Below, piece by piece: positions 7,213-10,013 of a DNA stretch of 26,066 nucleotides. The DNA is from Escherichia coli (lineage in GTDB: Bacteria; Pseudomonadota; Gammaproteobacteria; Enterobacterales; Enterobacteriaceae). Position numbers and translations under genes: made by a program. A model generated the notes under the pieces. That model searched no databases and was not told the origin of the DNA. It saw nothing but the letters and a program-made list of their open reading frames with translations. The stretch lies in assembly GCF_003334255.1 (NCBI RefSeq), contig NZ_QOWU01000064.1; one strand, written 5' to 3'. Each line of letters opens with the position of its first letter. The first letter of the stretch is position 1.

Positions 7213-7692
7213 TCACTGGCTCGCGTCTTCCGAAGATGTTTCAAATCGCACAAGGCCAGGCGGCAATGCCACGCTTAAGATGATCGGTTGCCATTCTGCC
7301 CGGGCAGCAAACTTACGCGAGTAGCCGCGCGCAATCAGGAACCCGCCAATACCACCGAGGATCGCACCACATAATGCTGCGACGTCAGAAGCAAAGAGTA
7401 GCTGAAATAGCGAAGCGATAAGGAATAATCCCACCAGCGGCGACATATAAACCAGTAATGCGGAGCTAAGCAGGCTGCCTTCGGCGATCCCCAATTCCAC
7501 TTTTTGCCCCGGCACTAACGGCTCATCACAGGGTACGACAATGGTATGCGTGGTTTGCGGGCCAAGTTTATTTAACACGCGGCTACCGCAACCGGCGCGT
7601 GAAGCGCAGCTGCTGCATGAAGCTTTAACATCACAACTGACCAGCGCCTGCCCGTTTTGCCAGGAGACGACGGTAGCCCACTCTTTGATCAT
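7213..7692 (-). CDS. rseC: Sigma-E regulatory protein RseC (membrane protein)
   Basis: 159 aa; Cys-rich N-terminus and hydrophobic C-terminal half; 4-nt overlap with the rseB stop. Confidence 0.9.
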   Translation of the reverse strand: MIKEWATVVSWQNGQALVSCDVKASCSSCASRAGCGSRVLNKLGPQTTHTIVVPCDEPLVPGQKVELGIAEGSLLSSALLVYMSPLVGLFLIASLFQLLFASDVAALCGAILGGIGGFLIARGYSRKFAARAEWQPIILSVALPPGLVRFETSSEDASQ

Positions 7693-8645
7693 TGCGCTGC
7701 CCCGAACTTAATATTCTCGGCAATGCGTTTCGCCGTTTGCGGCGGCAGTTCACCGACAATGGTGATTTCGGCGTTATCACGTACGCTTGTACTGACGGTT
7801 CTGCGTCCGGTGCGCAACATCTGATCGGTGCTCGATGGCGTAGCGCGGTTAACGTTTACCGAGAAGCTGAATAATCCGTCGGAATAGAGACGTGATTCGA
7901 TAGGCATGTTGTCCATCGTCGGTAGCGGACGTCGACTACTGGAAACTTCGCTAAAACCCTGTGGCAACCAGGTTGGCGTCCAGCTGAATTTAGCTTTTTC
8001 ACCTACAGGAACAGAAAGCAACGGCGGCAAATTTGCCTTCGCCAGCGTCTGCATACTGCTGCTGATATCCTGATTGACGTTAAAAGCAATCACGCGAAAT
8101 TGTTCCAGCGTTTCACCATCGCGATCAAGGAGATCAACCCGCATCGGTAATTTCGATTCGGTGTCCATCCACACGATGTAGCTGTAGCGTGTACCATCTC
8201 GGGCAACCACGCGAATGACTTCGCAAAGACGATCAGCAATACGCGTGCGCCCGACGGAGATAAAGTCGTAGTAAGGAGAAAGGCGTTTGAAATCGGTATA
8301 GATAAGCGATGGCAGAGAATCAACAATGTAATCGCCATTAAGCGTGAACGGTTCAAGTCCCGGTTCAAAATAGCTGATTTCATTGCCGCGCTGTACCACT
8401 TCCCGGCGCGGGCCATCCATTTGCAACAATTGTGCAAGAGGACGGTTATCGAGGCGTGCATGTCGATAACGCAGAGACTCAACACCCTGTTTATTGATGC
8501 TGATGAATGACAGCTCGTAATTCAGTGACTGACTGGCCAGGTTCATCTGCTGTAATAACGCCCCGGACGCGGGAGTGGCCGAGGCGTTAGCAGAGAATAA
8601 CAGGCTACCTGTCACTAATGACATGGCAAACCAAAGTTGCTTCAT
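7689..8645 (-). CDS. rseB: Sigma-E regulatory protein RseB (periplasmic, binds RseA)
   Basis: 318 aa; N-terminal signal peptide MKQLWFAMSLVTGSLLFSANASA; start codon shares one nucleotide with the rseA stop. Confidence 0.93.
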   Translation of the reverse strand: MKQLWFAMSLVTGSLLFSANASATPASGALLQQMNLASQSLNYELSFISINKQGVESLRYRHARLDNRPLAQLLQMDGPRREVVQRGNEISYFEPGLEPFTLNGDYIVDSLPSLIYTDFKRLSPYYDFISVGRTRIADRLCEVIRVVARDGTRYSYIVWMDTESKLPMRVDLLDRDGETLEQFRVIAFNVNQDISSSMQTLAKANLPPLLSVPVGEKAKFSWTPTWLPQGFSEVSSSRRPLPTMDNMPIESRLYSDGLFSFSVNVNRATPSSTDQMLRTGRRTVSTSVRDNAEITIVGELPPQTAKRIAENIKFGAAQ

Positions 8646-9295
8646 TACTGCGATTGCGTTCCTAAAGTTTGAATTCCTGGCACCTGTACAGCGGCTTGCT
8701 GGGTTTGCGCCTGCTCAAACTGAAGCTGTTCAGAGTGGAGTCGGCGTTGCAGTTCGTAATCCTGCAACATTGCATTAATGCGACGACGCTGCTCCTGTAC
8801 CTGCTGCTGTTGACCATTGTTTGCGGTCGCTTCAGAAGGTACTCCCAGGCTTACCGGGCTGGCTTTACCCATCATCGGCAGTGTATTAAATACCGGCGTT
8901 TCGGGCTGCTGGGACGTTTCAGATTGTCCATTATAGTGCTGGACGCCAACGATAACTGCAAGCGATACGCATGCGGCTACGCCCATTTGGGTAAGCTGTG
9001 CCGCCCACGGACGTACTTTCTGCCAGAATGGCATTTTCTGCCATTGATGCGGCGCAGGCTGGGCTTCCGGGATCAATGTCGCCGGTTGACGTACTGGCTC
9101 TTCTTCAATGGCGGCCATCACGCGTGAAGAGATATCGAAATGGAGCACCTCGGGAGTATCACCCCGCATTGAGTCACGGATTAAGTGATAGCTTTCCCAG
9201 GTTTTCTGCATTTCTGGGTTATGAGCCAGTTCGTTAAGCAGCTCACTATCCAGCGTTTCGCCATCCATTAAAGCGGAAAGTTGTTCTTTCTGCAT
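8645..9295 (-). CDS. rseA: Anti-sigma-E factor RseA
   Basis: 216 aa from MQKEQLSALMDGETLDSELLNEL...; single central TM segment (AACVSLAVIVGV) and Gln-rich periplasmic domain. The ORF-track start at 9331 adds 12 aa. Confidence 0.92.
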   Translation of the reverse strand: MQKEQLSALMDGETLDSELLNELAHNPEMQKTWESYHLIRDSMRGDTPEVLHFDISSRVMAAIEEEPVRQPATLIPEAQPAPHQWQKMPFWQKVRPWAAQLTQMGVAACVSLAVIVGVQHYNGQSETSQQPETPVFNTLPMMGKASPVSLGVPSEATANNGQQQQVQEQRRRINAMLQDYELQRRLHSEQLQFEQAQTQQAAVQVPGIQTLGTQSQ

Positions 9296-9327
9296 GCCTA
9301 ATACCCTTATCCAGTATCCCGCTATCG

Positions 9328-9903
9328 TCAACGCCTGATAAGCGGTTGAACTTTGTTATCAATAGCTTCCCTCGCTCGGAAGATACGTGAACGCACCGTA
9401 CCTACCGGACAATCCATGATAGCGGCTATCTCTTCATAGCTCAGGCCATCCAGCTCCCGCAAGGTTATTGCCATGCGTAAATCTTCCGGGAGGGACTCAA
9501 TAGTTCGGAAAACTATCTGTCTCAGTTCTTCTGACAACATTAAGTTCTCAGGGTTCGAAATTTCTTTCAACGCGCCGCCACTTTCGAAGTTTTCAGCTTC
9601 AATGGCATCCACATCACTGGAAGGTGGACGACGCCCCTGAGCAACCAGGTAATTTTTCGCTGTATTTACAGCAATCCGATACAGCCATGTATAAAAAGCG
9701 CTATCTCCCCGGAACGAATCCAGCGCACGATAGGCTTTAATAAAAGCTTCTTGTACCACATCGGGAACATCACCCGACGGCACATAGCGGGAAACCAGAC
9801 TCGCCACTTTATGCTGATAGCGCACTACCAGTAAGTTAAAGGCTTTCTGATCTCCCTTCTGGACCCGTTCAACCAGGACCTGGTCCGTTAACTGCTCGCT
9901 CAT
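9328..9903 (-). CDS. rpoE: RNA polymerase ECF sigma factor sigma-E (sigma-24)
   Basis: 191 aa from MSEQLTDQVLVERVQKGDQKAFNLLVVRYQHKV...; sigma-70 regions 2 and 4. The ORF-track start at 9936 adds 11 aa. Confidence 0.95.
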   Translation of the reverse strand: MSEQLTDQVLVERVQKGDQKAFNLLVVRYQHKVASLVSRYVPSGDVPDVVQEAFIKAYRALDSFRGDSAFYTWLYRIAVNTAKNYLVAQGRRPPSSDVDAIEAENFESGGALKEISNPENLMLSEELRQIVFRTIESLPEDLRMAITLRELDGLSYEEIAAIMDCPVGTVRSRIFRAREAIDNKVQPLIRR

Positions 9904-9985
9904 CCGAGGTAAAGTCTCCCCAAACCAAATTTCCACGCGCTATCGAAACGCCACTCCATTAGCTGCAATTTGAGCAAGCAAAGGG

Positions 9986-10013
9986 TTAGAGTGTCTCGTT
10001 TTTGTAAAGTTCC
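9986..10013 (-). promoter_or_regulatory. Sigma-E-dependent promoter of rpoE (GGAACTT-N16-TCTAA on minus strand)
   Basis: Minus-strand -35 GGAACTT (10013-10007) and -10 TCTAA (9990-9986) separated by 16 nt, ~85 nt upstream of the rpoE ATG. Matches the sigma-E promoter consensus as I recall it. Confidence 0.75.

Follow-up and report, generated by a model that had tools for sequence, protein, structure and literature searches.

We asked what is encoded by the minus strand of a 26,066-nt stretch of Escherichia coli DNA (contig NZ_QOWU01000064.1; the whole stretch is hereafter referred to as the window) at positions 7213–10013, which an initial annotation had read as a complete rpoE-rseA-rseB-rseC envelope-stress operon headed by a promoter that its own product, sigma-E, recognises. 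All coordinates given below are those of the window, and all of the features so located lie on its minus strand.

Identity and extent of the operon

The ORF map shows rpoE, rseA, rseB and rseC on one strand, flanked by the divergent nadB and, downstream, by lepA, as in the RefSeq annotation of MG1655. These genes encode the ECF sigma factor sigma-E (rpoE, 9328–9903, with its ATG at 9903–9901; 191 aa; TIGR02939 equivalog, 328.7 bits, cut-off 236), the membrane anti-sigma-E factor RseA (8645–9295; 216 aa; NF008116, 425.7 bits, cut-off 263), the periplasmic RseA-binding regulator RseB (7689–8645; 318 aa; NF006990, 543.9 bits, cut-off 368) and RseC (7213–7692; 159 aa; NF008115, 277.6 bits, cut-off 184). 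The ORF list and the MG1655 RefSeq annotation additionally contain rseD, a 51-codon leader ORF of rpoE (9900–10055; NF033697, 104 bits, cut-off 35), the product of which is named ‘rpoE leader peptide’ in the annotation of the identical MG1655 sequence. The scores of RpoE, RseA, RseB, RseC and RseD all lie above the curated cut-offs of the NCBIfam equivalog models.

At the nucleotide level, MG1655 and the region are 100% identical over 3,321 nt (~3.3 kb), and the E. coli K-12 MG1655 operon (b2573–b2570 region) has the same DNA, gene order, gene lengths, junctions and flanks, without any difference. We regard it as virtually certain that the interval is the E. coli K-12 rseD-rpoE-rseA-rseB-rseC operon with its mapped, self-activating sigma-E promoter, and none of our observations speaks against this. 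The allele is that of the K-12 reference, and both the operon and its sigma-E promoter are already known. The rpoE-rseABC genes are co-transcribed as one mRNA (PMC1312014, PMC8595263), a published description of the operon includes rseD (PMC8595263), and recognition of the promoter by sigma-E, together with the positive autoregulation that the initial annotation had proposed, has been established experimentally for this exact sequence (PMC1312014, PMC6358824, PMC7461557). As this is among the best-studied regulatory loci of E. coli, its identification has little weight as a discovery; its main value is that of a positive control, in which raw sequence sufficed to recognise operon junctions and the promoter of an ECF sigma factor. 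The refinements are small: rseD and an internal promoter, rseA P3, belong in the description of the locus, P3 is seen as a synonymous-site constraint, and rseD is clade-restricted.

The description of the interval as a complete operon is correct in that all four genes are there and their coordinates are right, but the interval cuts rseD and omits five upstream promoters. Its intactness had also been considered a useful strain-level trait. Because the locus was found by DNA-level comparison in 5,426 of 5,426 complete E. coli genomes at ≥95% nucleotide identity, intactness does not discriminate between strains at this level. The sole low-coverage match, a candidate for a naturally disrupted operon, was rejected as an artefact, since in that record the sequence origin falls within the locus.

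At the distal end, a terminator-like hairpin (GAGCCAGUG-AUUU-CACUGGCUU, then UGUUGCAUUU; 7201–7222) lies over the rseC stop codon. Its folding energy is −16.1 kcal/mol (z = −4.2 against shuffled sequences), and its T-tract is interrupted. A terminator scan combined with folding revealed no strong terminator-like site between the operon genes, so that this hairpin is the first convincing one. The same logic, in which an autoregulated ECF sigma factor is co-transcribed with a membrane anti-sigma factor and a periplasmic partner, is known from AlgU-MucA-MucB-MucC of Pseudomonas. That operon and other ECF sigma/anti-sigma operons differ from the present one in genus and sequence; the operon in the window is the original from E. 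coli rather than a homologue.

The position of rseC in the regulatory unit deserves separate consideration, since its product is now named ‘SoxR-reducing system protein RseC’ in both NCBIfam and RefSeq. This name would fit a gene that stands functionally outside the sigma-E module, sharing only its transcript and working with the Rsx complex to reduce SoxR. We consider the chances of this to be evenly balanced; on the other side, the gene order and the 4-nt overlap with rseB are conserved across Enterobacterales and rseC is still named among the sigma-E regulators (PMC8595263, PMC4585123).

Junctions between the genes

The stop codon of rseA (TAA, 8647–8645) and the start codon of rseB (ATG, 8645–8643) have A8645 in common, forming the sequence TAATG, while the rseC ATG (7692–7690) and the rseB stop codon (TGA, 7691–7689) form ATGA, a 4-nt overlap. 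Both overlaps had been noticed in the initial annotation and are confirmed when the junctions are read from the minus strand. The 1-nt rseA/rseB overlap has been retained in 56 of 59 loci and the rseB/rseC overlap in 55 of 57. From these junctions, translational coupling of the sigma/anti-sigma module had been proposed. The proposal is imprecise: the overlaps are real and conserved, but rpoE and rseA do not overlap and are separated by a gap of 32 nt, and therefore the overlaps do not couple the sigma factor to its anti-sigma factor. What the junction sequences suggest is that TAATG plausibly couples translation of rseB to that of rseA, and ATGA translation of rseC to that of rseB.

Alternatively, the two overlaps might represent inherited compact packing without any effect on translation, each gene initiating from its own SD-like sequence. 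Purine runs resembling an SD are indeed found upstream of both genes (AGGA, 14 nt from the ATG of rseB, and GGGG, 7 nt from that of rseC), the overlaps have been lost with the genes retained in three of the 59 and two of the 57 loci, respectively, and our literature search found no experiment on the rseA/rseB or the rseB/rseC junction. We nevertheless judge this explanation to be somewhat unlikely, as approximately 95% of the loci, across many genera, keep the overlaps. In addition, an SD placed 14 nt from the rseB start codon is ill suited to independent initiation, and this would favour reinitiation at rseB by terminating ribosomes.

Promoters upstream of and within rpoE

The sigma-E promoter of rpoE, published as P2 and later renamed P6, consists of the −35 element GGAACTT (10007–10013), a 16-nt spacer (10006–9991) and the −10 element TCTAA (9986–9990). 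The published sigma-E consensus comprises GGAACTT, a spacer of 15–19 nt with a strong preference for 16, a −10 element of the TCAAA type, a 5/6-nt discriminator and a purine start (PMC1312014); P6 matches the Rhodius consensus at 7/7 positions in its −35 and TCAAA at 4/5 positions in its −10 element. From the published discriminator length and purine preference (PMC1312014), transcription is predicted to start at G9979, giving a 76-nt leader; a sigma-E-dependent start 5–6 nt past the −10 element has been published for this promoter (PMC1312014, PMC6358824, PMC7461557). The A of the rpoE ATG lies 83 nt from the end of the −10 element and 110 nt from the start of the −35 element; the initial annotation, which had placed the promoter ~85 nt upstream of rpoE, gave its coordinates exactly.

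The mapped promoter, to which a comparison had been suggested under the older name P2, is found at the same place. A Tn10 insertion at −90 has been described as lying ‘3 nt upstream of the −10 rpoEP6 promoter element’, with rpoEP6 being transcribed by E-sigma-E (PMC7461557); the −10 element of P6 therefore starts at −87, which is window position 9990. In position and in consensus match, the promoter in the window does not differ from the published rpoE P2/rpoEP6 (Rhodius 2006; Klein 2016 via PMC6358824), for which autoregulation of rpoE has been described (PMC6358824, PMC1312014).

The pattern GGAACTT-N16-TCTAA occurs once in the 26-kb window and in none of 100 dinucleotide-preserving shuffles. 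It is present in exactly this form in 73 of 109 Enterobacterales loci, and the remaining loci carry, equally far from the ATG, variants such as TGAACTT, TCCAA and TCAAA. Among 100 unique Enterobacterales sequences, GAACT does not vary, and conservation of the spacer reaches only 40–70%; the −10 element reads TC[T/C/A]AA across genera and is fixed in position. The segment GCTTGCTC at 9979–9972 is at least 90% conserved in every column, with six of its eight columns invariant. This cross-genus footprint independently supports the published reading of the element as an autoregulatory promoter that sigma-E recognises.

Five published sigma-E-independent promoters of rpoE are located in the rpoE-nadB intergenic region (10056–10310), and the upstream promoters are assigned to sigma-70/RcsB, sigma-54/QseF and sigma-S (PMC6358824, PMC5736990). 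That the P6 pattern matches by chance and that rpoE is driven only by these upstream promoters has practically no probability: several of them do exist (PMC6358824, PMC5736990), but the absence of the pattern from the shuffles, the fixed positions of its −35 and −10 elements around a variable spacer and, above all, the published mapping of E-sigma-E transcription to exactly the same position have already refuted this possibility. A search for the sigma-54 promoter rpoEP2 with TGGCAC-N5-TTGCW, allowing ≤3 mismatches, gave 121 matches against 136 expected and none that was convincing within 9904–10310. Our sigma-70/terminator scan of the region yielded no sigma-70-like promoter on its minus strand; a perfect, conserved TATAAT lies at 10069–10064.

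A second sigma-E promoter, rseA P3, lies within rpoE (9523–9557). Its published transcription start site precedes the rseA ATG by 228 nt (PMC8595263; PMC1312014), and the window has a promoter at the same distance (Rhodius 2006; PMC8595263). The assignment of its elements is our own: we read the −35 element as CGAACCC (9557–9551), followed by a 16-nt spacer, the −10 element TCAGA (9534–9530) and +1 at G9523. This −35 element matches the consensus much worse than that of P6. Third-position entropy in rpoE is lowest at nucleotides 337–375 (~0.1 vs 0.87), and 0 of 100,000 permutations gave a value as low. Hence P3 is visible purely as a synonymous-site constraint, the strongest in rpoE. We also considered an alternative assignment with the −35 element AGAACTT (9548–9542), a 16-nt spacer and CTGAG (9525–9521). 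It was rejected, as the leader it predicts is ~220 nt long and the published one 228 nt, and as the −10 element of our preferred assignment is where the conserved block ends. P3 was absent from the earlier description of the locus.

Regulatory model and the rseD-rpoE leader

In the regulatory model that emerges, the steps concerning P6, the co-transcribed rseA and rseB, P3 and the control by RseA and RseB are established in the literature on this very sequence, while those concerning translation and coupling are partly inferred. Sigma-E holoenzyme recognises GGAACTT-N16-TCTAA (10013–9986) and starts transcription near G9979, such that free sigma-E raises its own synthesis in a positive feedback. 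Since rseA and rseB are on this transcript too, negative feedback is built in as well, and P3, starting near 9523, supplies additional rseABC message. RseA keeps sigma-E at the inner membrane, with RseB protecting RseA, until envelope stress leads to cleavage of RseA by DegS and RseP and its subsequent degradation by ClpXP, by which sigma-E is released.

Translation of rpoE, in turn, would be set by its leader, through a poorly spaced SD, GGA sites bound by CsrA and termination-reinitiation from rseD. The rpoE SD, GGGGAG, lies 12 nt before the ATG, a spacing that probably contributes to setting the level of rpoE translation. The leader contains four GGA motifs as candidate CsrA sites between 9903 and 9957 (9957–9955, 9934–9932, 9919–9917 and 9905–9903), the third of which lies in the SD and the fourth on the rpoE start codon; three of the four are reportedly bound. 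The stop codon of rseD and the start codon of rpoE overlap as ATGA (9903–9900), and translational coupling at this junction was reportedly described by Yakhnin in 2017. Folding of the P6 leader indicated no more structure than in shuffled sequence (z = +0.41). A small leader hairpin pairs the SD with CCUCGG; the bases on both of its sides are invariant, so that covariation is uninformative.

P6 itself sits inside the later-annotated rseD ORF. As the sigma-E transcript start (~9979) is internal to rseD, the ATG of which is at 10055, autoregulated mRNAs cannot encode full-length RseD. It is conceivable, if quite unlikely in our estimation, that the choice of promoter would set both the amount of rpoE mRNA and the efficiency of its translation, mRNAs from P6 being without the rseD-to-rpoE coupling of transcripts from the upstream promoters. 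If true, the two kinds of mRNA would differ in rpoE translation and not only in quantity.

In our sample of loci, full-length rseD is restricted to Escherichia, Salmonella and Citrobacter. Except in one Klebsiella locus, the rseD frame of the loci from Klebsiella, Raoultella and Kluyvera is open for only 8–19 codons and has no ATG. Given this limited distribution in the sampled loci, the coupling layer provided by rseD would be a recent, clade-specific addition to the operon.

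The rpoE operon and its gene junctions

The ORF map and the translations place rpoE at 9903–9328 (191 aa), rseA at 9295–8645 (216 aa), rseB at 8645–7689 (318 aa) and rseC at 7692–7213 (159 aa), all on the minus strand, and together with the minus-strand sequence they bear out every coordinate of the initial annotation. The four-gene operon described there stands, but it lacked rseD, a 51-codon leader ORF (10055–9900, minus strand) present in the ORF map, in the RefSeq annotation and among the NCBIfam matches; the published operon is rseD-rpoE-rseA-rseB-rseC (PMC8595263). All five products, RseD included, scored above the curated NCBIfam equivalog cut-offs (for RseD, 104 bits against NF033697, whose cut-off is 35). 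E. coli K-12 MG1655 and many other strains are 100% identical over window 7000–10320, and RefSeq annotates the identical MG1655 stretch with lepA, rseC, rseB, rseA, rpoE, rseD and the divergent nadB. Every one of the 5,426 complete E. coli genomes has a match to this segment, always chromosomal; in the lone complete genome without a match of at least 80% coverage, the record origin cuts the locus. Several E. coli chromosomes are 100% identical to window bases 78–25000, and one further genome matches bases 1–25000 at 99.7%. The rpoE-rseABC locus is a textbook, fully characterised one with the reference allele and was already known; the initial observation is confirmed and its interpretation essentially right.

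Translational coupling of the sigma/anti-sigma module had been proposed from overlapping junctions. The overlaps are present at rseA/rseB, where A8645 is common to the rseA stop codon TAA (8647–8645) and the rseB ATG (8645–8643), and at rseB/rseC, where the rseC ATG (7692–7690) and the rseB TGA (7691–7689) form ATGA; they are conserved in 56 of 59 and 55 of 57 loci, respectively. A gap of 32 nt lies between rpoE and rseA, and the sigma/anti-sigma pair itself therefore has no overlap. The SD-like AGGA of rseB lies 14 nt from the ATG, a spacing ill-suited to independent initiation and compatible with reinitiation. Coupling at the rseA/rseB and rseB/rseC junctions is a plausible inference.

The sigma-E promoter P6 and rseD

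The sigma-E-dependent promoter of rpoE, P6 (formerly P2), consists of a −35 element GGAACTT (10013–10007, minus strand) and, after a 16-nt spacer, a −10 element TCTAA (9990–9986). The 26,066-nt window contains a single GGAACTT-N16-TCTAA, and 100 dinucleotide-preserving shuffles produced none. The sigma-E motif that Rhodius et al. built from 28 mapped starts has GGAACTT at −35 and a −10 of the TCAAA type, set 15–19 nt apart with a strong preference for 16; transcription begins at a purine after a discriminator of 5/6 nt. The same study describes the control of the rpoE operon as positive autoregulation with negative feedback (PMC1312014). The autoregulated promoter is the P6 of the Klein and Raina review, which counts six rpoE promoters in total (PMC6358824). 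A Tn10 insertion at −90 relative to the rpoE initiation codon has been located 3 nt upstream of the rpoEP6 −10 (PMC7461557), which places this element at −87, that is, at window 9990, the first base of TCTAA. The proposed promoter thus coincides with the mapped one.

For the cross-genus comparison, we fetched 111 Enterobacterales loci by a degenerate pattern for RpoE residues 18–33, of which 109 had sufficient upstream sequence; the alignment comprised 100 unique sequences. The exact GGAACTT-N16-TCTAA was found in 73 of the 109 loci, starting 108–113 nt before the rpoE ATG, and the remaining loci had variants such as TGAACTT, TCCAA and TCAAA at the unchanged position. In the alignment, GAACT was invariant and the −10 was 70–100% conserved, whereas conservation of the spacer was just 40–70%; conserved boxes with a drifting spacer are the footprint expected for a two-box promoter, as judged from the alignment. 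The 6-nt discriminator and the purine preference indicate that the P6 start should be G9979, as initially guessed. The first 8 nt of the transcript so predicted (9972–9979, minus strand) are GCTTGCTC; every column was at least 90% conserved and six of the eight were invariant among the 100 sequences, in which the discriminator just 5′ of 9979 was variable.

P6 is located within the rseD ORF, and the TGA of rseD overlaps the rpoE ATG as ATGA (9903–9900). This junction, at which coupling was reportedly shown experimentally (Yakhnin 2017), is to our knowledge the sole one with such a demonstration. As the P6 start (~9979) is downstream of the rseD ATG, sigma-E transcripts would encode only a 19-codon tail ORF. 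This putative ORF, MEWRFDSAWKFGLGRLYLG (9959–9900, minus strand; ATG at 9959), has no obvious SD. Among the loci sampled, full-length rseD was found only in Escherichia, Salmonella and Citrobacter, with ATGs at codons −51/−54, −40 and −19. In the Raoultella and Kluyvera loci, every Klebsiella locus but one, and some from Kosakonia and Enterobacter, the frame leading into the rpoE ATG stays open for just 8–19 codons and lacks an ATG of its own. The common C-terminal 'GLGR.YLG' probably mirrors the conserved SD and leader nucleotides, not the peptide. That the sigma-E-driven transcript would begin inside rseD is a mildly new angle; together with the clade restriction, it suggests that rseD-mediated coupling may be limited to transcripts from upstream promoters in Escherichia, Salmonella and Citrobacter.

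rseA P3, further promoters and the rpoE leader

P6 was the only promoter recognised initially; a second, published sigma-E start, rseA P3 within rpoE, and five further rpoE promoters were missed. The published rseA P3 start precedes the rseA ATG by 228 nt (PMC8595263), which corresponds to G9523. By our own reading, its putative −35 is CGAACCC (9557–9551, minus strand), followed after 16 nt by a putative −10, TCAGA (9534–9530); the spacings agree with the Rhodius rules. We examined synonymous sites by third-position entropy over 81 rpoE sequences, each of 191 codons. The mean was 0.80, and the gene minimum, about 0.08, was at codons 113–124 (nt 337–372; window 9567–9532); in 100,000 permutations, no random draw of 13 third positions reached so low a value. 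Thus, rseA P3 is detectable by sequence comparison alone.

The five further promoters are attributed to sigma-70/RcsB, sigma-54/QseF and sigma-S (PMC6358824, PMC5736990). A scan with the sigma-54 consensus for the published upstream promoter gave chance-level hits, and none of the five promoters was placed. A perfect TATAAT, conserved across genera, is present at 10064–10069 (minus strand), with 8 nt separating it from the rseD ATG. It may be one of the published upstream promoters; if a transcript begins ~7 nt past it, rseD would be nearly leaderless.

The rpoE SD, GGGGAG, lies 12 nt before the ATG. Four GGA motifs in the leader, one on the SD and one on the start codon, fit the reported repression of rpoE translation by CsrA (PMC7652899). 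In a predicted small hairpin (9901–9925, minus strand), which is part of the centroid structure and has both arms invariant across genera, the SD region UUUGGGGAG pairs with CCUCGGAU at the start codon. This predicted hairpin could help to keep independent initiation of rpoE weak.

The operon end and other window features

A hairpin over the rseC stop codon (7222–7201, minus strand; −16.1 kcal/mol, z = −4.2), with an interrupted T-run directly 3′, is a plausible, possibly leaky, terminator before lepA. A full-length Rfam match to AsrC (RF02746, 507 bits) at 6897–7728 on the plus strand runs antisense to rseC, the spacer between rseC and lepA, and the lepA 5′ end. In Salmonella Typhi, AsrC is reported to activate the rpoE-rseABC operon (PMC4585123). 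The promoter scan revealed no plus-strand promoter for AsrC upstream of 6897, and the match may represent DNA homology only. Rfam gathering-score matches were also obtained for the rncO leader of the rnc operon (3900–4114, minus), the OhsC antitoxin sRNA (411–487, plus), the ES036/CssrF sRNA (14195–14237, minus) and a 5S rRNA gene truncated at the window end (25963–26066, minus), all of which are expected in this region of the E. coli K-12 chromosome.
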